From assembly GCA_963708135.1 (NCBI GenBank), contig OY970192.1, positions 2,048,001 to 2,112,000 on the forward strand: a stretch of DNA of 64,000 nucleotides, written 5' to 3'. The notes below the pieces were generated by a model. The model saw only the letters and a program-made list of their open reading frames with translations. It made no database searches and was not told the origin of the DNA. Positions 39,429-55,144 of the stretch are shown here, one piece after another. Source of the stretch: an uncultured Gemmatimonadales bacterium (GTDB lineage: Bacteria; Gemmatimonadota; Gemmatimonadetes; Longimicrobiales; RSA9). How positions within the stretch are numbered: position 1 is the stretch's first letter; each line of letters starts with the position of its first letter. Position numbers and translations under genes: made by a program.

Positions 39429-39942
39429 ATGTCTGAGCGAACCGGGAGAACGACCGGCGCGAGGGGCCGGGCTGGAGCCCTCGAGGCGCTGGAGCGATAT
39501 CGCGCAGAGGCGGGAGGCGGCGGCGCGGACTGCCTGCTGAGAAGCGCACGGGCGGTCGGGCGTGGGGCCGAGCCGCCCCGGCGCCGGGCCGAGCTCGTCG
39601 AGCGGGCCATGCGTGAGAGCGGCCTGGCGTGGCAGGCGGCGGAGGCGCTCTACGCGCTCGCGCTCGAGGAGGAAATCGAGCCGGGCTTCGCCTTCGAGCT
39701 CGTGCGCTGCGGCGTCGGCGTCCGCCCGCCGGAGGAGCCCGAGGCGGCACCGGAGCGCTCGGTCGAAGAAACGCCGGAGTGGGTGGAAAGCTCCCGTCCC
39801 CGGCCCGAGGAGGCGGCGTGGGAGAGGCGGGCGCGGGCGAGCTTTCGGCGGCTCAGGCATCTCGCTCGAGGCGCACGCCACGCCGGAGGCCGCGCTGGCC
39901 GCGTACGCGGAGGAGCCGGACCTCGAGGAGACGGGCTACTGA
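39429..39942 (+). CDS. hypothetical protein with apparent +1 frameshift near 39864
   Basis: MSERTG...RRLRHL continues in another frame as LEAHATPEAALAAYAEEPDLEETGY*. Confidence 0.6.
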
Positions 39943-39956
39943 CCGCCGCTCGCCCC

Positions 39957-40730
39957 TCAGCCGTCGAGGCGGCCCAGGAGGCGCAGCAGGGCGTCGAGGA
40001 TGGTGAGCGGGTGGGGGGGAAAGCCCGGGATCCAGAGATCCACCGGCAGGATGTCGTTCACACCGCCCCAGGTCTCGCTCGACTCCCTCCACGGCCCGCC
40101 GGAGATTGCATCGGCCCCGAGCGCGATGACGAGCTTCGGCGCGGGAATCGCGGCCCAGGTCCGCTCCAGCGCGGCGCGCATGTTCCGCGGCACCGGTCCG
40201 GTGACCACCAGCCCGTCGGCATGCCGCGGCGAGGCGACGATCTGGATGCCGAAACGGCCGAGATCGTAGACGATCGTGGAGAGCACGTTCACCTCGGCCT
40301 GATCGGCGCCCGCGTCACCGGCGGACACGTGCCGCAGGCGGAGCGAGCGGCCGAAGAGGCGGCGTGCCCGCGTTTCCAGCGCCGCCGCGCGCCGGTACGG
40401 CTCCCCTTCCACCACCACCAGGTCCTCCCCTCTCCCCGCCGCGAGGCGGTGGTCGCGCGTGAAGCGCACGGCGCCTCCGGGGCACGCTTCCTCGCAGGCT
40501 CCGCAGAACAGGCAGCGACCCAGGTCGAGGCGGAGCTTCCCCCCGCTCTGATCGAGTGCCTCCGTCGGGCAGGCCTCAATGCACGAGCTGCAGTCGTCAC
40601 CGCAGCGCGAGCCATCGAGAACGGGAAGTCCCCGGAACCGCCCCGGCAGCCCGGGCGCGTCGGGCCGGTCCACGGGCGGATCGATCGTGGGAGTACCCTG
40701 CCTCACCCGGTTCCTCAGGATCTCCAGCAT
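39957..40730 (-). CDS. Ehr-type small subunit: 2[4Fe-4S] ferredoxin fused to a NuoB/HycG-like domain lacking Cys ligands
   Basis: CGDDCSSCIEACP and CLFCGACEEACP; FGRSL, SPRHAD..VTGPV, PVD..IPG.PP. Confidence 0.9.
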   Translation of the reverse strand: MLEILRNRVRQGTPTIDPPVDRPDAPGLPGRFRGLPVLDGSRCGDDCSSCIEACPTEALDQSGGKLRLDLGRCLFCGACEEACPGGAVRFTRDHRLAAGRGEDLVVVEGEPYRRAAALETRARRLFGRSLRLRHVSAGDAGADQAEVNVLSTIVYDLGRFGIQIVASPRHADGLVVTGPVPRNMRAALERTWAAIPAPKLVIALGADAISGGPWRESSETWGGVNDILPVDLWIPGFPPHPLTILDALLRLLGRLDG

Positions 40731-40737
40731 CCCCGCC

Positions 40738-42252
40738 TCACAGGTCGTGTCCGCCGTAGGAAAGATTGAAGCTCTTGTTGCAGAGGGGAAAATCCGAGAT
40801 CGCCTGGCCGCGCAGCGCCAGCTCGAGCGCGGGCCAGTTGTGGAACGAGGGGTCGGTCACCTTGTAGCGGCGGAACCTTCCGCTGCTCCCGCTCAGCGCG
40901 ACGTGGGCAGCCTCGCCGCGCCACGCCTCCACGAGCGAGACGACTCCCGCACCCGCGTCCAGCGCGCCGCACTCGACCCGGACGGCTCCCGCCGGCAGCT
41001 CCTCGAGCAGCGCCCGGGCGAAGGAGAGCGAGCGCTGCGCCTCGAGCCAGCGGATGCTCGCGCGCGCGAACACATCTCCCTCGGCCGTTGTGACGGGCGG
41101 CACGTGCGCCAGGCGGTACATCCCGAACGGATGGTCGTGGCGCACGTCGCGCGCGAGACCGGAGGCGCGCGCCGCGGGTCCGACCATTCCAAGCGCGCGA
41201 GCTTGCGTTTCCGCGACGATCCCGGTCCCCTCCATGCGGTCCTGCACGCCCGCGTTCGACAGGAGCATCCCGGCCGCGGCCGTCAGCTCCCGCTCGGCCT
41301 CCGCCAGCGCGGTCGCCAGCAACCGGATCTGCTCCGTGGCCGGATCGACGCTCACTCCCCCGGGCCGCAGGAAGCAGCGCCCGAACCGGCTGCCGCAGAG
41401 GCTCGCGGTCATGTTCAGGAACGCGCCGCGCAGCCGCCCGCAGGAGGCCGCCGTCGGCTGGAATGCCACATCGCCCGCCAGCGCGCCGAGGTCTCCCGTG
41501 TGGTTCGCGAGACGCTCGAGCTCGAGCGCCAGTGCACGCAACGCGTGGGCGCGCGCCGGCACCGCGCAGCCGGCCAGCGCCTCGACGGCCTGCACGTAGG
41601 CCAGCGCATGGCCGATCGTGGTGTCCCCCGCGAGGTCCTCCATCCGGAAGACGGTCACCCGGTCCGGTCCCCCCACGAGCAGCGCCTCCAATCCTCGGTG
41701 CTGGAATCCCAGCATGATCTCGAGGTGGTAGACCGTCTCACCATGGCACTGGAAGCGGAAGTGGCCCGGTTCGATCACGCCCGCATGCACGGGCCCGACC
41801 GCGACCTCGTGAACCTCGAGGCCGTCCATGTGGAAGAAGGGGTAGTCCGCGCCGATCGGGAGCGTCGCGTCGTGCAGTCGATGCGACCCGGGCGGCGCCG
41901 CTGCGGGGCTGCGCAGCGGCTTGAGCCACGGATGTCCCTCCGGCACGATGCCGAGCTGTTCCGCGATCTCGCGCTCGAACCGGCTGGCGGCCACGCAGGC
42001 ATCCGAGAACGCGGGATAGCGCTCTCCCACCTCGGTCCGCATCACCGCGAGCCGTGCCGAGGCGTCGTCCGCGAGCACCGCCCACAGGCCGGAGCGCCCG
42101 CCTCCGAGCGGCTCCCCGAACAGCGTTACGAGACGCCAGCCGTCGCGCAGCCGCTCCAGGGCCAGCCGGCGGAAGCCGACGGGGTCGGCGGCGGCTACCC
42201 CGCCCGGCTGGAAGCGCTCGGCGTTGCGCACGAGAAGCGCAGGGGCGCTCAT
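40738..42252 (-). CDS. Ehr-type large subunit (HycE/NuoCD-like, no NiFe CxxC motifs)
   Basis: VGPVHAGVIEPGHFRF, HRGLE, EDLAGDTTIGH, ELERLANH, DPSFHNW, DFPLCNKSFNLSYGGHDL. Confidence 0.92.
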   Translation of the reverse strand: MSAPALLVRNAERFQPGGVAAADPVGFRRLALERLRDGWRLVTLFGEPLGGGRSGLWAVLADDASARLAVMRTEVGERYPAFSDACVAASRFEREIAEQLGIVPEGHPWLKPLRSPAAAPPGSHRLHDATLPIGADYPFFHMDGLEVHEVAVGPVHAGVIEPGHFRFQCHGETVYHLEIMLGFQHRGLEALLVGGPDRVTVFRMEDLAGDTTIGHALAYVQAVEALAGCAVPARAHALRALALELERLANHTGDLGALAGDVAFQPTAASCGRLRGAFLNMTASLCGSRFGRCFLRPGGVSVDPATEQIRLLATALAEAERELTAAAGMLLSNAGVQDRMEGTGIVAETQARALGMVGPAARASGLARDVRHDHPFGMYRLAHVPPVTTAEGDVFARASIRWLEAQRSLSFARALLEELPAGAVRVECGALDAGAGVVSLVEAWRGEAAHVALSGSSGRFRRYKVTDPSFHNWPALELALRGQAISDFPLCNKSFNLSYGGHDL

Positions 42253-43683
42253 CCGCCTCCCCCTCCCACCAGCCGCGCCGCGGCCGTGAGTAGCTCGCGC
42301 AATGGAGCCGGAATCCACACGCCGAGCACCAGCACGGCCACGCCCAGCGCCAATGGCGGTAGCACGGCGGACGCACGTTCCACCGTCCCGGCGCGCAGCT
42401 CATCGGTCGGGGACTGGCCGAGGGCCATCCGGAGCACCACGCCGGCCATTCCCGCGAACACGGCGGCCAGCGCGCCAAGGTAGAGCGCCGCCACGACCCA
42501 GCGTCCGGCATCCAGAATGCCCTTCAGGATCGTCAGCTCGCTCAGGAACAGGCCAAAAGGGGGTGCTCCCGCGATGGCCAGGAAGCCGGCCACCCAGAGC
42601 GGCCCCGAGATCGGCAGGCGCCGGATGGCGCCGCGCACATCCGCCACGGCCTTGCTGCCATAGGCGGCCAGGAGGTTGCCGGCCGTGAGAAAGAGGAGGC
42701 CCTTGGCCAGGCCGTGCCCGAGCGCGTGCAGCATCGCCCCCCACGCCGCCACGCCGCCCACGCCGACGCCCAGCGCGAGGATTCCCATGTGCTCCATGCT
42801 CGAGTAGGCGAGAAGCCGCTTGAAGTCCTGCTGTCCGATAATGAACGCGGCCGACAGCGTCAGCGAGAGGAGTCCGAACGCCACGAGCACCGGCCGCACG
42901 AAGCCACCGAGCCCCGCCGCGAGGCAGACCTGCACCCCGCGAAGCAACGCCAGAAAGGCGCACGTCAGCAGTCCCCCCGACAGCAGGGCCGAGGCCGGCG
43001 CGGGCGCCTCGCTGTGGGCGTCGGGCAGCCACGCGTGCATCGGGGCGAGCCCCATCTTCGTTCCGTAGCCCGACGAGCAGGAAGATGAAGGCGGCGCGCA
43101 GCAGCTGCGGATCCAGGCCGGGCGCCGCGCGGAGAAGCGCGTCGAGGACCAGGGGCGCGCCCGCCGGCCCGCGGGTCGCGGACAGCGCGAGCAGGAACGT
43201 GCCGACGAGGGCGAGGGCGATCCCCACGGAGCAGAGGAGCAGGTACTTCCAGGCCGCCTCGAGGGCCTGCCGGGTGCGGTGGTGGTAGACCAGCGGCGCG
43301 CTGGCCAGCGTGGTGGACTCGACGGCCACCCAGAGGAGCCCCAGATGTCGGCTCACCGCCACCAGCGTCATCGCGGCCAGGAACCAGAGGAAACAGGCGA
43401 CGAAGGCGCGATCCTCCGCCCCTTCCCCCGCCAGGCTCCCCTGCACGGACGACGCCGTGGCCAGGAAAAGGAGCGTCACGAGGGCGAGCACGAGCCGGCC
43501 GAGGGCATCGAGGCCGATCCACGCCCCCGGGTGCGCGGGCGCGGGATGGAGGATCACCCAGGTGGCGATCCCGCTGTGGAGCAGCGCGCCGAGCACGAGA
43601 AGCGTCCTGCGCGTGGCGACCCTGCCCGAGGCGAAGGCGAGCGCACCGAGCAGCGCGGGGACGAGGACCAGGAGAACGAGCAC
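42249..43683 (-). CDS. HyfF-like antiporter-type subunit, frameshifted near 43070
   Basis: EAAWKY, FIFLLVG | YGTKMGLAPMHAWLPDAHSEAP, KRLLAYSS; one extra G in GTC GG(G)C TAC. Confidence 0.85.
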
Positions 43684-43687
43684 GCGG

Positions 43688-44341
43688 TCAGTCCCGGAGC
43701 GAGGCGAGCTCGGGCACGCTCATGTGGTCGAACTCGCGGTTGATGTGGAAGATCGCGATCCCCATGACGAACACGCCCACCAGCACGTCGAGCAGGATGC
43801 CCATCTCGACAAGGGTGGGCAGGCGGCTGGCCAGCGTCTGCCCGAGCAGGAAGATGCCGTTCTCGAGCAGCAGATACCCGAGCACCTGCGTCACCGCCTT
43901 CTTCCGCGACACCATCACGAGCGCGCCGATCATGAAGGTGGTCAGCGCGACCGGCACGAGGAGCGGCGCGGCCGGTGGAACGGGGACCGGCAGATCGCGG
44001 GCGAGCGCGAATGCGGCGGCGGTGAGCAGGCCGCCGATGACCAGCGATGCGGTGAAGCCGATGAACGGCTCGACCTCGCGACGGACGGCGGCCTCGCGCA
44101 TCGCACGGCCGAGCAGCCACGGGATCAGGACCCCCTTCACGCCCGCGGCCGTGAGCGCGAAAGCGGCCGTATGCGCGGCCGGCACGCCGCCGTGCAGCAG
44201 CAGCGGCAGCGCCCCGAGCAGCAGCCCCTGCGCGGCCACGATGCGGATCGACGCGCTCAGGCGGCTCGAGCCCAGGATCGCGAAGTCCGTGAGTACGACG
44301 AGCACGAGCAGCAGCTCCGTCGCGGAGGCCACGACGCTCAT
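43688..44341 (-). CDS. HyfE-like membrane subunit
   Basis: Multi-TM; K..LIP.LL, REVEP, LLLENGI, VEMGILLD. Confidence 0.85.
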   Translation of the reverse strand: MSVVASATELLLVLVVLTDFAILGSSRLSASIRIVAAQGLLLGALPLLLHGGVPAAHTAAFALTAAGVKGVLIPWLLGRAMREAAVRREVEPFIGFTASLVIGGLLTAAAFALARDLPVPVPPAAPLLVPVALTTFMIGALVMVSRKKAVTQVLGYLLLENGIFLLGQTLASRLPTLVEMGILLDVLVGVFVMGIAIFHINREFDHMSVPELASLRD

Positions 44342-45249
44342 CGCAGGGAGAGCACCACGGCGAAGGCGGCCAGCACGGCTGCGCCGACCAGGAGCTGTGG
44401 TACGCGCGCGAGCCGGAGTCGTGCCGTGACGGACTCGAGGATGCCGACCGCGACGCCGAGCCCGAGCAGGCCGGCGCCGAATAGCGCCATGTCGCCTTGA
44501 CTGCTGCCCGTCCGGAACGGCAACAGGAGGTCGCCGAGCAGCGCGGCGTAAAGCCAGAGCTTGAGCGCGGCGGCGTACTCGAGGAGCGCGAGGTCGGGAC
44601 CACCGTGGTCGAGGATCATGACCTCGTGGATCATCGTCAACTCGAGGTGCGTTGCGGGGTCGTCGACGGGGAGCCGGGCATTCTCCGAGAGTAGCACCAC
44701 GAGGAGGGCCGCCGCCGCCAGCGCGGGCGCGGCGGCGTTGGCGGCCCAGACCGCGCGCAGATCGGGGCCGAGCAGCCCGCTGAGCGACGCGTGGCGCGTG
44801 CCCAGCGCGAGCACGAGCACGACGCCGAAGAGGGCGAGCTCGGCCAGCGCCGAGAAGAACAGCTCCCGGCTCGCCCCCATCCCTTCGAAGCTCGATCCGG
44901 TATCCAGCGCGGCCAGCGCGGTCGCGAAGCGGGCGAGGCCGAGCGCGTAGGCCACGGCGATGACGTCGCCCGGGAACGCGACTGCCGCGGTCTGCCCGGC
45001 GGCGGGCACGAAGAGCAGTGCCACGGCGACGCCCGCGAGCCCGGCCACCGGGCCGAGGCGGAACAGCCAGGTGGTCGTGCGGCTGTAGACCGCGCCCTTC
45101 CCGAGCAGCCGGGCGAGGTCCCGGTACGGTTGCAGGATGGGCGCCCCCCGACGGCCCGCCATCCGCGCCTTCGTCCTGCCGATCACCCCGCTCAGGAGCG
45201 GCGCCAGGACCAGCGCCGCGAGCCACGTGGCCAGCCCCGCCCCGCTCAC
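44338..45249 (-). CDS. HyfC/HycD (NuoH-like) membrane subunit
   Basis: GRRGAPILQPYRDL, SFEGMGASRE, ENARLPVDDPATHLELTMIHE. Confidence 0.9.
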   Translation of the reverse strand: MSGAGLATWLAALVLAPLLSGVIGRTKARMAGRRGAPILQPYRDLARLLGKGAVYSRTTTWLFRLGPVAGLAGVAVALLFVPAAGQTAAVAFPGDVIAVAYALGLARFATALAALDTGSSFEGMGASRELFFSALAELALFGVVLVLALGTRHASLSGLLGPDLRAVWAANAAAPALAAAALLVVLLSENARLPVDDPATHLELTMIHEVMILDHGGPDLALLEYAAALKLWLYAALLGDLLLPFRTGSSQGDMALFGAGLLGLGVAVGILESVTARLRLARVPQLLVGAAVLAAFAVVLSLR

Positions 45250-47240
45250 CGAAGCCACCCCACGGCGAGCACGAGCAGCACGATCAACGCCGCGAAGATG
45301 TAGAGCAGGTAGAGGTGTGTGCCGCCCCGCTGCAGCCCGCGCGCACGGCCGAGCCATCCCTCGATCCGCTCGAACAGCGGCTGATAGAGCCGGCTGCGAA
45401 ACAGGTCCGGCGTTTCCGAGGCCAGCGAGGCCGCTTCCGGATGGAAGCCCTCCGGCGCGACCACCTCGGCGCGCCGGCTGCTCAGCGTGGGCCGGAAGAA
45501 CGACAGGAGCGGGTCCAGGAGCGACGAGCCCGTGTACTGCGCTCGCGGCGCCGCCTCCCCCTCGTAGCCACACCCCCAGGTCTCGTCCTCCGTCTGCGGC
45601 CGCCCGTGCAGGAGTCCGCGCCGCAGCAGCCCCACCACACCTCCGAATACCAGCAGAGCGACGGCGATCCGCGTGGGCCACCACGCGAGCCGAAACAGCA
45701 GGGTCACAGCGTCCCCCTTGAACGCCCTGAGCGATGCCGTGAGCTCGAGCACCGGACGCACCACCACCAGCATGCCGAGCGACGGAAACACGCCGAGCAC
45801 GACACAGAGCAGCGCCAGAACGTGCATCGGGATCCGCATGGCGCGCGGCGCTTCGTGAGCCGATGCTGCGGCGGCGCCGCGCGGCCGTCCCAGGAAGGCC
45901 ACCCCGAACGCCTTGGCGTACACGGCCGCCGCCACCGCGCCGGTCAGCGCCAGAACGCCGACGAGGAGGAGCCCGGGCCACGCATAGGGAGCCCGGATCG
46001 TCGTCACCAGCGCGAGCCCCGCCGAATAGAGGAAAAACTCGCTGGCGAAGCCGTTCAGCGGCGGTAGCGCGACCCCGGCCAGGGCCCCGATCAGGAAGGT
46101 CGTGCCGGTGTCCCCCATCCGGCGGAGGAGCCCACCGAGGCGGTCCAGCTCGAGTGTGCCCGCCCCGTGCCGGATCGATCCCGCGCCGAGAAAGAGCAGC
46201 CCCTTGAAGAGCGTGTGGTTTACCGCGTGGAAGAGCGCCGCCGCGAAACCGAGCACCGCGGTCACGGCGCTGCCCGTGCTCATTCCGAGGAGCCCGACGC
46301 CGATCGCCAGCGCGAGCACGCCGACGTTCTCGATGCTCGAGTAGGCCAGCAGGCGCTTCAGGTCCTGCTGCGCCCCGGCCGCCAGGATGCCTCCGAGCGC
46401 GCTGACCCCGCCGACGAGCACCAGGAGAGCGCCCCACCACCACGCCGGCGCACCGAGCAGGAGCAGCACCCTGAGGAGCCCGTAGATCCCGGTCTCGATC
46501 ATGACACCGGACAGCACCGCCGAGACGTGGCTGGGCGCTGCCGGATGCGCCTCGGGCAACCAGATGTGGGCAGGCACCAGTCCCGCCTTCGTGCCGAAGC
46601 CGACGAGGCCGAGCAGGAACATCGCGCCGGAGGAAACCCCGCCGGCCGCGACGTACGGCGCGCGGAAGTCCGGAGCACCGCCATGCCCCAGGAGCAGGAA
46701 GAGGACGAGCAGGAACGCCGTGCCGATATGGGTCGCGACGAGGTACGTCCACCCCGCGCGGCGCACCTCCGCCCGCTCGTCCTCGAAGACCACCAGGAAA
46801 TAAGAGGTGAGCGACATCACCTCCCACGCCACCAGGAACAACACCCCGTTCCGGGCCGACAGCACCAGCACTATGGCGGCCATGAGCAGATCGAAGAACA
46901 GCCACGACCACGCCGCTCGCCGCTCGCCCGTCCACGCCTCCAGGTATCGCGCGCCGTAGAGTGCCGCCGCGGCGAAGAGCACGTAGGCCGGCAACAGGAA
47001 GACGGCGCTGAGCCCGTCCGCCTGCAGCGTGAAGGCACCCAGGGGAACGGCCCACGGCAGAGACAACGCGATCGGCCCGGCGCCGAACAGGACGCCGGCG
47101 GCTGCAAGCACGCCCGCTGTCGAGCCTGCGATGCACGCGCCCGCACCGAGCACTCCGGCGCGACGCGTGTTCCGTCCCGCGAACGGAGCGAGGAGCCCGC
47201 CAACGACGGGCAGCAGCAGAGACAGGAGAAGCAGCGTCAC
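45246..47240 (-). CDS. HyfB/HycC-like antiporter-type subunit
   Basis: WEVMSL, KAGLVPAHIWLPEAHPAAPS, KRLLAYSSIEN, PPLNGFASE, WGCGY. Confidence 0.9.
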   Translation of the reverse strand: MTLLLLSLLLPVVGGLLAPFAGRNTRRAGVLGAGACIAGSTAGVLAAAGVLFGAGPIALSLPWAVPLGAFTLQADGLSAVFLLPAYVLFAAAALYGARYLEAWTGERRAAWSWLFFDLLMAAIVLVLSARNGVLFLVAWEVMSLTSYFLVVFEDERAEVRRAGWTYLVATHIGTAFLLVLFLLLGHGGAPDFRAPYVAAGGVSSGAMFLLGLVGFGTKAGLVPAHIWLPEAHPAAPSHVSAVLSGVMIETGIYGLLRVLLLLGAPAWWWGALLVLVGGVSALGGILAAGAQQDLKRLLAYSSIENVGVLALAIGVGLLGMSTGSAVTAVLGFAAALFHAVNHTLFKGLLFLGAGSIRHGAGTLELDRLGGLLRRMGDTGTTFLIGALAGVALPPLNGFASEFFLYSAGLALVTTIRAPYAWPGLLLVGVLALTGAVAAAVYAKAFGVAFLGRPRGAAAASAHEAPRAMRIPMHVLALLCVVLGVFPSLGMLVVVRPVLELTASLRAFKGDAVTLLFRLAWWPTRIAVALLVFGGVVGLLRRGLLHGRPQTEDETWGCGYEGEAAPRAQYTGSSLLDPLLSFFRPTLSSRRAEVVAPEGFHPEAASLASETPDLFRSRLYQPLFERIEGWLGRARGLQRGGTHLYLLYIFAALIVLLVLAVGWLR

Positions 47241-47935
47241 GGGCGCGCTTCGATTCCGGCTCCGCGAGGCGGCGCGCTTCGCTCCAGGCGACGGACCGCC
47301 TCGATGATCTCCACGCCCGGACCGGCGGCGTCCACCAGCGCCCTCACGCCGCCGTCCCGGAGCGCGAACGCCAGCCGCGCGAGCAGGTGGAGGTGCGTTC
47401 GCACGGTCGGGCTGACGATCACGAAGAGCGTACGAACGCCGAGGCCGTCGGGCGAGGCGAGATCAAGCGGGCACCGGAGAAATGCCAGCGTGACGGTGGG
47501 GGCGGCCACATCGAGCACGATCGGCCGGCGAACGTGCGGCACGGCGACCCCGCCGCCTATGGCCGTGGAGCCGAACGTCTCGCGGGCGAGAAGCGCCTCG
47601 AGCAGGAAGGCGCGCTCGCCTTCCGCGGGAAGCGGCAGCCGCGCGACCACCTCGCCGAGAACGCCGGGCAGATCCTGTCCCGGCAGGTCGTGGTGGATTC
47701 CGCCGGCCGCGAGGGCTTCGGCGAGCGAGTCGGCGGGCGAGTCCCCCCACGCGAGCAGGGCGTCGGATCCCAGGTCGATTCCGCGCGCGCCGGCCCACTC
47801 GAGCAGCTCGTCGCGGCTCAGCATCCAGCGCTCACGCGCGTTGTGCGCGGGCAGGCTGCCGTCGCGGATGCCGCGCAGGATCAGCCGTTCCGGAACGTGC
47901 AGCAGGGTCGCGGCGTCGCGAACCGTGAGTCGCAT
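47237..47935 (-). CDS. excisionase-like HTH fused to PTS EIIA (PtsN-like) domain
   Basis: N-terminal LTVRDAATLL..PER; RE..GSTAIGGGVAVPH phospho-His motif; HL.LLARLA. Confidence 0.88.
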   Translation of the reverse strand: MRLTVRDAATLLHVPERLILRGIRDGSLPAHNARERWMLSRDELLEWAGARGIDLGSDALLAWGDSPADSLAEALAAGGIHHDLPGQDLPGVLGEVVARLPLPAEGERAFLLEALLARETFGSTAIGGGVAVPHVRRPIVLDVAAPTVTLAFLRCPLDLASPDGLGVRTLFVIVSPTVRTHLHLLARLAFALRDGGVRALVDAAGPGVEIIEAVRRLERSAPPRGAGIEARP

Positions 47936-53228: not shown

Positions 53229-53328
53229 TCGACACTCCCGACAAATAGAAACCCCGGCACCCCGCCGGCTTCGTCCGTGGGCGCCCGGACACGGGCCGTC
53301 TGTTCACGCGTACGCGTTGCCTCGCTCA

Positions 53329-53344
53329 AGCAACAGCCGTGCCT
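53329..53344 (-). promoter_or_regulatory. sigma54 promoter AGGCACGGCTGTTGCT
   Basis: Near-consensus GGCACG-N4-TTGC about 100 nt upstream of 53228. Confidence 0.75.
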
Positions 53345-53451
53345 TGGCAGGCCCGGAATCGGAGCCTTGCTGGATGCACACGCGGCCAATGCCTTGCGTC
53401 GCGCCCCCGTCCGCTCGGGGGACCGCTCGGCCGTGGAGGTCTGGCCACGTG

Positions 53452-53469
53452 TGTTGTACCGGACCTACA
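53452..53469. promoter_or_regulatory. candidate enhancer site TGT-N12-ACA
   Basis: TGTTGTACCGGACCTACA about 110 bp upstream of the sigma54 site. Confidence 0.5.
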
Positions 53470-53497
53470 GCAGAAATCGGCGTGCGCTGCTTCGTCG

Positions 53498-54127
<630 letters not shown>

Positions 54128-54131
<4 letters not shown>

Positions 54132-55144
54132 GGTCGGAGCAGCACCTTTCCGAAGTTCTTCCGGTCCTGGATGTAGAGGTGCGCATCCGCCGCGCGCTCG
54201 AACGGGAAGACCCGGTCGACCACCGGCCGGAAGACGCCGTCGCCGGCGAGATCGATGATCCGGGCGAGCTCCTCGCGGAGCACCTCGGCCCGGTCCCACA
54301 GGCGGCCGACGTTCAGGCCGATCACGCCGCGATTCTCGTTCATGAGCCGGACCGGCCGGAACGCCGGCATGCGCACGAGCCCGGAGACTGCGGCGAGCAG
54401 GCTGCGCCGCTTGCCCGGCGCCAGCGCGGAGACCCCGTACAGGAAGAGCCGGCCGAGCGGCGCCAGGCACGCGTAGCTGGTCCGAGGCGAGGCCCCGCCG
54501 ATGCCGTCCAGGGCGAGGTCCACGCCGTGCCCGCCGGTCTCGCGGCGCACCGCGGCGAGCACATCGCCGCCGCGGGAATCGATGCAGCAGGCGACGCCGA
54601 GCGCGCGTAGCCGCTCGTGCTTTTCCGGCCCCGCGGTGCCGATCACGCTCGCGCCCCGCCAGAGGCAGATCTGGAGCGCCGCCTGCCCGACACCTCCGGC
54701 GGCCGAGTGCACCAGCACGCGGTCGCCGGCACGAACGCAGCCGAGCCGCACGAGCATCAGCCAGGCGGTCAGGTAGTTGACGGGGAGCGCGGCCGCTTCC
54801 TCGGTGGAGAGCGCGTCCGGAATCGGGAAGGCGAGCTGCACGGGGATGACCACGGCGTCGGAGTAGCCGCCAAAGCGCGTGAACGCGGCCGCGCGCTGCC
54901 CCGGGACCAGCCCCTGCACGCCCGGACCGGTTGCCTCGACGGTCCCCGCCACCTCGTAGCCGACGACGGCAGGCAGGCGCGGCGCATCGGGGTAGAGACC
55001 CATGCGGGCCATGATGTCGGCGAAATTGACCCCGGCGGCGGCCACTCGGATGCGGACCTCGCCCGGACCCGGATCCGGGTCCGGCGCCTCCCGCACCTCC
55101 AGGACCTCGGGGCCGCCCCGGCGGCGGATCCAGACCTGCCTCAC
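54128..55144 (-). CDS. zinc-independent MDR quinone oxidoreductase (VAT-1-like)
   Basis: GGPEVL, GVNFADIMARMGLYP, PVNYLTA, HSAAGGVG, RKNFGKVLL. Confidence 0.88.

Follow-up and report, generated by a model that had tools for sequence, protein, structure and literature searches.

Ligand loss at the proximal-cluster site in the small subunit EhrS of a Gemmatimonadales Ehr operon and its recurrence among related complexes

The Ehr (energy-converting-hydrogenase-related) complex of Geobacter sulfurreducens consists of EhrA-D, EhrL and EhrS (GSU0739-0745), and its subunits are abundant on formate, according to the available passages of PMC7894505. In the available passages of five papers (PMC6349859, PMC7894505, PMC10284858, PMC4758237, PMC7304191) Ehr is described as a complex whose large subunit is devoid of NiFe ligands and whose function is unknown. 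The present work concerns an Ehr operon of an uncultured Gemmatimonadales bacterium, located in a stretch of 64,000 nucleotides (contig OY970192.1, positions 2,048,001 to 2,112,000; this whole stretch is called the window below), and in particular the gene of its small subunit, EhrS. The RsmH of this genome has a similarity of 65-68% to that of Longimicrobiaceae and Longimicrobiales MAGs, which makes membership of the organism in Longimicrobiales (Gemmatimonadota) probable. In this subunit a NuoB-like domain has none of the four cysteines that bind the proximal Fe-S cluster in its relatives. As judged from alignments and trees, the ligands of this cluster have been lost repeatedly and separately in the Ehr subfamily to which the gene belongs, and the loss is inherited within clades. 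To our knowledge, Ehr complexes are widespread and have no known substrate, and all models of Ehr, complex I and membrane hydrogenases that we know of assume that a terminal Fe-S cluster of the NuoB-like subunit feeds the pocket of the large subunit.

Ligand positions of the small subunit

The gene is, on sequence and predicted fold, that of EhrS, the small subunit of the Ehr membrane complex. Its product combines 4Fe-4S ferredoxin domains (residues ~36-88) with a NuoB/20 kDa domain (PF01058, residues 144-250, 74.1 bits against a cut-off of 27), both recognized by Pfam. The closest solved relatives found by phmmer are HycG (7z0s_G, E 9e-25) and MbhJ (6cfw_J, E 2e-23); residues 4-105 align to HycF (7z0s_F, E 5e-14), and NuoB is also among the PDB matches. 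The predicted fold has a mean predicted local distance difference test score (pLDDT) of 85.1 and was matched by Foldseek to NuoB and MbhJ chains with template-modelling (TM) scores, normalised by the target, of 0.75-0.85.

The cluster cysteines of HycG and MbhJ face A140, D143, D207 and F237 of EhrS in the phmmer alignments, the positions being fixed on family alignments. The NuoB part contains no cysteine at all and hence no tandem cysteine. The original prediction, made from the letters of the window alone, had claimed that all four proximal ligands are lost from a cysteine-free domain, and this is borne out; its further claim that the flanking motifs and the fused ferredoxin are intact holds as well. 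All eight ferredoxin ligands are present (C43, C47, C50, C54, C73, C76, C79 and C83), and these cysteines are invariant in a 39-sequence alignment that takes in cysteine-poor forms. Among the EhrS homologues the database annotations "NADH-quinone oxidoreductase subunit B" and "hydrogenase small subunit" are seen, which are misleading for genes of cysteine-less EhrS. A canonical NuoB (L002), in which the four cysteines are all present, is also encoded in the genome.

The large subunit EhrL has A230, T233, S520 and G523 at the four positions of the NiFe cysteines (alignment to HycE). The quinone ligands H38 and Y87 of Thermus Nqo4 align to I182 and G231 of EhrL (alignment to 2fug_4), both of which are invariant in the family alignment. 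In each of the 81 genome loci for which a large subunit was found, no more than one of the four NiFe columns holds a cysteine. Having neither the NiFe ligands nor the quinone ligands of complex I in its large subunit, the complex is therefore of Ehr type, in agreement with the original prediction. By the same alignments the whole subfamily is Ehr, and its usual state is the one that would retain the proximal cluster. Three other cysteines of the EhrL family lie near the former NiFe site in the loci with all four small-subunit cysteines: C522 (94%), C471 (81%) and C242 (75%). C471 and C522 are lost in all five members of the clade of the window's gene for which there are data and are kept in other cysteine-poor clades; EhrL of the window has Val, Ala and Gly at 242, 471 and 522, respectively. 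Together, C471 and C522 might contribute to a so far undescribed active site of Ehr.

The chance that the missing cysteines are an artefact of sequencing or assembly is, in our estimate, next to nil. The genome is apparently assembled from a metagenome and has some frame breaks, which is the ground for such a suspicion. Against it, four separate codons would have to be affected, three of which (GCG, GAT and GAT) differ from the cysteine codons TGY at two or more bases, while the fourth (TTT) differs at one. Contigs of one public soil-metagenome run (X1) are identical to the window at 39900-40153 and span the D207 and F237 codons, so that two of the four codons are confirmed by independent contigs; the A140 and D143 codons (40302-40313) are not clearly covered by them, and the run may be the sample behind the genome assembly itself. 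Moreover, ten sequences from other samples in the same clade are likewise cysteine-less, and for this reason sequencing error, already considered improbable when the loss was predicted, is excluded in practice. Over 40415-40960 the X1 contigs differ from the window once (A>G at 40578, synonymous by codon reading, Ile51 of EhrS); this difference may reflect strain variation or, at a depth of 4.5, an error. One public DNA run contained 46% of the sampled words, and no public RNA runs matching the sampled words were listed.

Distribution and recurrence of the loss

A search of 5.8 billion protein clusters gave ~8000 EhrS homologues, of which the best 120 (58-68% identity) were analysed. This list was ranked by likeness to the cysteine-less query and is for that reason enriched for cysteine-less forms. 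Writing the residues at the four ligand positions in order, 59 of these best 120 of ~8000 have the full set (CCCC) and 61 do not. The 61 show 21 distinct patterns, among them SCEW (22 sequences), SESF (9) and DACN (8); the pattern of the window, ADDF, is unique among the best 120. In species-representative genomes 76 of 84 loci (~90%) are CCCC, and eight have lost at least two ligands: one is in a metagenome-assembled genome (MAG) labelled as Actinomycetota, several are in Planctomycetota including Isosphaeraceae, and two in Opitutae. Cultured bacteria with the CCCC form include Geomonas limicola, Geothrix paludis, Anaeromyxobacter oryzisoli and Geobacter. Among 80 metagenome loci 73 are CCCC, 6 cysteine-poor and 1 truncated. 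In a search restricted to representatives at 50% identity the whole subfamily falls into few clusters. The cysteine-poor homologues in genomes and metagenomes rule out a unique oddity of one gene, and the suggestion that the state is peculiar to this gene was not borne out: it is inherited by a clade and repeated in the Ehr subfamily.

The original prediction also envisaged that the cysteine-less variant might be both common and already described. Common it is in metagenomes, as the counts above demonstrate for the best homologues, but no published description of a cysteine-less Ehr small subunit was found in a full-text literature search, outside of which lie Coppi 2005, Marreiros et al. 2013, supplements and subscription journals. 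The available passages of the five papers on Ehr cited in the opening paragraph (PMC6349859, PMC7894505, PMC10284858, PMC4758237, PMC7304191) contain no mention of cysteine loss in the Ehr small subunit, and neither do those of PMC3578206, PMC12361115 and bioRxiv 10.1101/2021.08.23.457424.

Within the window's own taxonomic family an orthologue is present in 5 of 24 genomes: G014 is SESF, G006 SDEF, G002 and G015 are CCCC, and G016 is partial with cysteine at the last two ligand positions (G015 and G016 are unpublished genomes). No EhrS orthologue is present in any of 16 genomes that belong to other families in the order. The nearest genomic relative, L044 (CAWCVN010000005.1; 64% identity, SESF), lies in the MAG labelled as Actinomycetota. 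The patchy spread of the cysteine-less clade across phyla hints at mis-binning or at a horizontal transfer of the operon as a whole.

All trees were built after removal of the four ligand columns. In the FastTree phylogeny (222 rows) the query belongs to a clade of 12 cysteine-less rows (support 94), which also contains G014 and the Actinomycetota-labelled MAG. This tree requires no fewer than seven changes between CCCC and non-CCCC, six of them forced by the starred branches, and none of 500 label shuffles gave as few. In a quick IQ-TREE phylogeny of 82 rows nine changes are needed, of which six are forced, and the query falls into a set of 11 rows with a support of 97 (Shimodaira-Hasegawa-like approximate likelihood ratio test, SH-aLRT), ten of which are cysteine-poor, including G006 and G014. 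The place of L008, a CCCC row on a long branch, is unsure, this row being inside the query's clade in IQ-TREE and outside it in FastTree. Five changes remain in a tree of 72 rows, from which ten long rows had been removed (P0146, P0133, P0184, P0186, P0155, P0177, P0137, P0147, P0125 and L008). A single origin of all cysteine-poor forms was rejected on these 72 rows: forcing the 33 rows concerned together is 165 log-likelihood units worse (approximately unbiased (AU) test, p 1.05e-6).

The changes are read as losses because the outgroups HycG, MbhJ and NuoB all carry the cysteines. The partial states found (SCCF, SECF, SCEW, DACN and CCDW) show that the remaining cysteines decay once the first ones are gone, and SCCF, SECF and SESF suggest an order of loss that begins with positions 1 and 4. 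The clade of related cysteine-less genes that had been anticipated does exist and the query lies inside it, but it is not a clade of AxxD/GAD/GFPP motifs, its nearest members having S/E/S/F at the four positions.

Selection, the former cluster site and the working of the complex

The NuoB domain remains under purifying selection after the loss. At matched divergence of the ferredoxin part, the identity of the NuoB domain is 0.77-0.91 in cysteine-poor pairs and 0.74-0.91 in cysteine-full pairs; at 50-60% ferredoxin identity it is 0.768 against 0.753 in CCCC pairs, and at 60-70% it is 0.819 against 0.787. The ratio of nonsynonymous to synonymous substitution rates (dN/dS; method of Nei and Gojobori, NG86) in this domain is 0.20 and 0.27 between the window and two clade members with DNA, 0.09 between these two SESF members, and ~0.22 between SESF and CCCC genes, all at pairwise dS of 0.9-1.6, that is, near saturation. 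Relaxed selection on the NuoB domain, the outcome that the prediction had proposed to look for by dN/dS, was thus not seen in either comparison. The eight ferredoxin cysteines are intact in every cysteine-poor sequence of the best 120 and of the loci. They are incomplete in 19 of 98 non-CCCC rows, all of which are distant representatives at 50% identity, and several of these keep the ligands of exactly one cluster. Six such distant sequences (P0155, P0177, P0184, P0186, P0250 and P0252) have DTDN, DVDS, DIDD, DDDS or DNDH at the proximal positions and have also lost the ligands of one ferredoxin cluster, exactly four cysteines being left (xxxCCCCx). In the alignment this pattern looks like a stepwise loss of clusters.

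The residues that occupy the ligand positions are variable. At least one Asp or Glu is found at the four positions in 76 of 89 ungapped non-CCCC sequences, and the other 13 are without an acid; Phe, Trp or Tyr stands at the fourth position in 51 of the 86 sequences with a non-cysteine residue there. In the window the acidic residues at the site are D139, D143, E146 and D207 of EhrS together with D228 of EhrL, which makes this copy the most acidic one. The carboxylate-rich site of the original prediction is borne out in so far as acids gather at the site, while the pocket with three Asp is special to this copy, its nearest relatives being S/E/S/F. The different chemistry or non-redox role that was also predicted is compatible with these findings. 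EhrS of the window also differs from all 65 other cysteine-poor sequences at three sites conserved to at least 95% (G139D, E144Q and G247A).

Among the large-subunit columns that CCCC loci conserve but cysteine-poor loci have changed, a scan singled out column 228. In 125 CCCC loci it is Thr in 113, Ala in 5, Ser in 5, Asn in 1 and Gln in 1, and in 12 cysteine-poor loci Thr is never found (Ala 4, Glu 3, Gln 2, Val 2, Cys 1); the query has Asp and its SESF relatives Glu. By this alignment the conserved Thr at column 228 is lost in every loss lineage. The column corresponds to R84 of Nqo4 (three before Y87) and to R141 of Yarrowia NDUFS2 (three before Y144), i.e. to the arginine of complex I that is next to cluster N2.

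The interface was modelled with residues 160-526 of EhrL and the NuoB domain of EhrS (residues 112-257), a check that had been proposed along with the prediction. The predicted complex has an ipSAE (interaction prediction score from aligned errors) of 0.78, the best control having 0.00; of 157 solved complexes 116 reach the mark that this score passes, as do 2 of 215 mismatched pairs. Since complexes like this one have been solved, the pass may stem from the predictor's knowledge of them; it supports docking of EhrS on EhrL as a likeness to those complexes and not as proof of binding. At least 94% of the contacts recur between the runs, and the partner pLDDT is at least 79. In the predicted complex D228 of EhrL touches D207 and F237 of EhrS. 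The arginine of the HRGxE motif (R208), which is invariant in the family, is within the modelled interface beside the pocket. In Yarrowia complex I the HRGxE arginine is 3.7 A from N2 and is required for the cluster, according to the available passages of PMC8042128.

EhrS is the last of seven co-directional genes (Table 1). The stop of the head gene overlaps the start of the hyfB-like gene. A homologue of the head gene lies upstream in many related Ehr loci of many phyla (71 homologues at 80% coverage or more; many contigs are too short to tell). The gene in the window keeps 15 of 15 conserved columns, including H134, which sits in a G-x-G-x-A-x-P-H-like motif and which, by comparison with PtsN, we take to be the phospho-accepting His. 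Related loci have the same order of genes in different phyla: a regulator gene, one or two copies of hyfB, then hycD, hyfE, hyfF and the genes of the large and the small subunit. Membrane columns conserved to at least 95% are kept in 74 of 78 cases in the HyfB-like, 58 of 58 in the HycD-like and 19 of 19 in the HyfE-like subunit, and in 14 of 15 and 36 of 36 in the two parts of the HyfF-like gene, so that the structural subunits together keep 201 of 206 highly conserved columns. The only changed conserved charged residue of the membrane arm is K249E of the HyfB-like subunit, at a position that is Lys in at least 95% of 85 homologues. An Rfam scan of the whole window gave no match at gathering scores, and no riboswitch (e.g. 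fluoride) was found at the operon.

Table 1. Positions in the window of the Ehr operon genes, of the EhrS domains and of the codons discussed in the text.
Feature	Position	Strand	Evidence
Head gene: HTH_17 + phosphotransferase system (PTS) EIIA-2 (EIIA-Ntr-like) protein	47237..47935	-	Pfam PF12728, PF00359
HyfB/NuoL-like antiporter-type subunit, 664 aa	45246..47240	-	Pfam PF00361
HycD/NuoH-like membrane subunit, start approximate	44338..45240	-	Pfam PF00146
HyfE-like membrane subunit, start approximate	43688..44350	-	Pfam PF00420 below its cut-off; orthologues in 104 loci
HyfF/NuoN-like antiporter-type subunit, two frames	42249..43683	-	Open reading frames (ORFs) 42400..43683 + 42249..43055; Pfam PF00361 on 3' part
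EhrL: NuoCD/HycE-like large subunit, 526 aa	40738..42318	-	Pfam PF00346/PF00329; alignments to HycE 7z0s_E, MbhL, Nqo4
EhrL D228 codon	41635..41637	-	Alignment column comparison
EhrS (HycF/NuoI-like ferredoxin + NuoB/HycG-like small subunit, fused), 257 aa	39957..40730	-	ORF, Pfam PF01058 + Fer4 families, PDB phmmer
2x[4Fe-4S] ferredoxin domain, residues ~36-90	40461..40625	-	Pfam Fer4 families
NuoB/HycG-like domain, residues ~124-253, 0 Cys	39972..40361	-	Pfam, phmmer, predicted fold
A140, codon GCG, position of proximal-cluster Cys 1	40311..40313	-	phmmer + family alignments
D143, codon GAT, position of proximal-cluster Cys 2	40302..40304	-	phmmer + family alignments
D207, codon GAT, position of proximal-cluster Cys 3 (GAC motif)	40110..40112	-	phmmer + family alignments
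F237, codon TTT, position of proximal-cluster Cys 4 (GCPP motif)	40020..40022	-	phmmer + family alignments

The loss of the ligands, its inheritance and recurrence, the purifying selection, the change at position 228 and the conservation of the membrane subunits were established by computation. From them we infer, with slightly better than an even chance of being right, that EhrS has no proximal cluster, the electron wire being cut, and that the complex has been kept as an ion-moving machine without redox function. The proximal [4Fe-4S] cluster, which corresponds to N2 of complex I and to the cluster of HycG and MbhJ, would no longer be present, and its pocket would be refilled by an aromatic side chain and carboxylates, including D228 of EhrL. 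The distance from the two ferredoxin clusters to the pocket of the large subunit would then be unbridgeable, and no redox chemistry would take place at the usual site: because the cluster, the NiFe ligands and the quinone ligands are all missing, electrons would have no route to the classical pocket. The NuoB-like/NuoD-like pair would remain as a cap, structural or gating, on a strongly conserved membrane arm of Mrp/Nuo type, which would move protons or cations driven by an existing gradient, and the two ferredoxin clusters may be retained for stability or as a redox sensor. A precedent for a structural role is cluster N7 of complex I, which is off the electron pathway and needed for stability only. 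The selection that maintains the cap fold, the interface and the charged membrane arm argues for such an ion-translocating machine with a structural or regulatory NuoB/NuoD-like module. That a complex of this superfamily can do without the cluster structurally is seen in Yarrowia, where, in the available passages of PMC8042128, the NDUFS2 mutant R121M assembles intact complex I without the N2 cubane and without quinone reductase activity.

Several observations speak against this assignment. A complex that does no redox work at all would give little reason for the strict retention of both ferredoxin clusters. The acids at former ligand positions could bind another metal, and the absence of a cluster is not the absence of chemistry. 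The co-change at column 228 comprises four independent contrasts, on average 3.5 in the same direction and none in the opposite one, which gives a sign-test p of 0.125, the lowest value that four independent pairs allow. The dN/dS values, given the near-saturated dS, are long-term averages in which recent relaxation would be undetectable. The cysteine-poor forms among the studied loci all come from MAGs or metagenome contigs and none from a cultured organism. Finally, there are possible signs of decay in this copy, namely a frameshift in the hyfF-like gene, the EhrS substitutions G139D, E144Q and G247A, K249E of the HyfB-like subunit and a long end branch.

The presence of acids raises the question of whether the site has been rebuilt into a carboxylate-lined metal or cation site (Fe, Mn, Mg, Ca, Na or proton) that has taken over from the cluster, either by supplying a titratable charge to drive the membrane arm or through a new chemistry. 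This is a possible reading, though we consider it rather unlikely. It fits the high share of ungapped cysteine-poor sequences with at least one Asp or Glu at the ligand positions (76 of 89), and every loss clade listed from the FastTree phylogeny has members with such residues (SESF, SCEW, DACN/DSDN, NEEW, DVCW, DTDN, DVDS/DIDD). In the window D139, D143, E146 and D207 cluster with D228 of EhrL, which lies against D207 in the model, and the HRGxE arginine R208 is still invariant beside the pocket. However, the replacements vary widely, with 21 non-CCCC patterns in the best 120 of ~8000 homologues, and 13 of the 89 sequences lack any acid; the S/E/S/F of the nearest relatives is not a recognisable metal site, and a bulky aromatic residue at the fourth position (Phe, Trp or Tyr in 51 of 86) resembles the filling of a cavity. 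An Fe-S cluster, [4Fe-4S] or other, still held by Asp and Ser with the wire intact is highly improbable. Asp and Ser do ligate Fe-S clusters in some proteins, and D143 and D207 sit at two of the ligand positions, but the Ala and Phe at the other two cannot ligate iron, no cysteine is left in the domain, and the residue of EhrL that faces the cluster has lost its conserved Thr in every loss lineage. Moreover, the single change of a non-ligand arginine in Yarrowia R121M already abolishes the N2 cubane (PMC8042128, available passages).

The remaining alternative accepts the loss at the level of the clade as real and regards this copy as a young decaying pseudogene operon without function. We find it improbable, somewhat more so than a rebuilt site. 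Its main ground is the hyfF-like gene, where an apparent one-base insertion in the GGG run at 43069-43071 breaks the frame; one base fewer restores it, and a scan of the coding frame places the junction at 43068. The frameshift is absent from the relative G014, in which the hyfF-like gene is in one frame but hycD is split. The three unique EhrS substitutions at sites conserved to at least 95% and K249E of the HyfB-like subunit fit decay too, and so does the terminal branch (0.47 against a median of 0.15 in FastTree, and long in IQ-TREE as well). Nevertheless, all other genes of the operon are open, the conserved columns of the structural subunits are kept nearly completely (201 of 206), and dN/dS is 0.2-0.3. 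The frameshift also has company in the genome. A codon-usage scan of this 5.45 Mb single contig of 72% G+C found 54 candidate same-strand frame breaks in 4473 coding segments, next to 1350 ordinary close junctions, and genes are split in the related long-read MAG loci L051, L061, L079 and L108; both fit residual assembly indels. One of the 54 is an apparent frame change near 53663 in a gene resembling uridine kinase (P-loop GGSGSGKT, ORF 53304-54470, - strand). The frameshift site of the hyfF-like gene is not covered by public reads; with 3 mismatches over 37 bases, two short records from around 43000 seem to stem from other organisms. We lean towards an assembly indel.

The terminal cluster appears to be dispensable in this subfamily: it has gone several times over, and yet selection still acts on the fold, the interface, the two upstream clusters and the membrane arm, an argument that at least part of the family operates with no redox chemistry at the classical site. 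Matched pairs of natural operons, one having and one lacking the cluster, are a means to ask about the role of the cluster in coupling and about the function of Ehr. A more far-reaching picture may be drawn tentatively, which as a whole is rather unlikely: the subfamily would be a natural series in which the coupling cluster was exchanged at least five times for an aromatic plug and carboxylates, with the partner residue changing alongside. Opposite the HRGxE arginine, the carboxylates would stand in for the negative charge of the cluster, a redox-switched charge would become one switched by protonation or by a cation, and the arm would be driven or gated without electrons. If this is true, near-identical operons with and without the cluster would test whether the charge at the N2 position drives ion translocation across the complex I superfamily.

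Comparison with known complexes

The closest described system is the Ehr of Geobacter, whose operon follows the same plan as the one described here: HyfB-, HycD-, HyfE- and HyfF-like subunits, a large subunit free of the NiFe cysteines, and a fusion of ferredoxin and NuoB. Loci of Geobacteraceae, Geomonas limicola and Pelobacteraceae belong to the same family as the query (54-57% identity). The Geobacter-type loci (L084, L099, L102 and L115) are CCCC, whereas EhrS of the window has none of the four cysteines. The window adds a lineage in which both ferredoxin clusters are kept and only the ligands of the proximal cluster are lost, and a loss that is repeated within a close-knit subfamily whose majority retains the cluster and is accompanied by a matching change at position 228.

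By sequence and fold the best solved relatives of EhrS are HycG/HycF of the E. coli formate hydrogenlyase (7Z0S/7Z0T) and MbhJ of Pyrococcus (6CFW). These are separate proteins with a four-cysteine [4Fe-4S] cluster and a NiFe large subunit; EhrS is a fusion, and the complex has neither ligand set. In the group 4 [NiFe]-hydrogenases (Hyc/Hyf/Mbh/Ech) pairs of CxxC bind NiFe, and EhrL is without them; Hyp maturation genes and a C-terminal endopeptidase go along with these enzymes. With NuoB/NDUFS7 of complex I, EhrS shares the fold and the position at the interface with a NuoD-like subunit. Complex I has a tandem cysteine in NuoB and reduces quinone, while here there is no tandem cysteine, and Y87 and H38 are replaced by G231 and I182. 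The Yarrowia R121M variant is a dead laboratory mutant, in contrast to the loss of cluster ligands described here, which is natural, inherited and under selection. The Mrp antiporters resemble the proposed complex in their working, though not by membership: their antiporter-like subunits are of the same Pfam family (PF00361) and have no redox input. Mrp combines MrpA/D-like subunits with MrpB, C, E, F and G and is without a NuoB/NuoD/NuoH-like module, whereas the Ehr operon of the window has NuoB-, NuoD- and NuoH-like genes.

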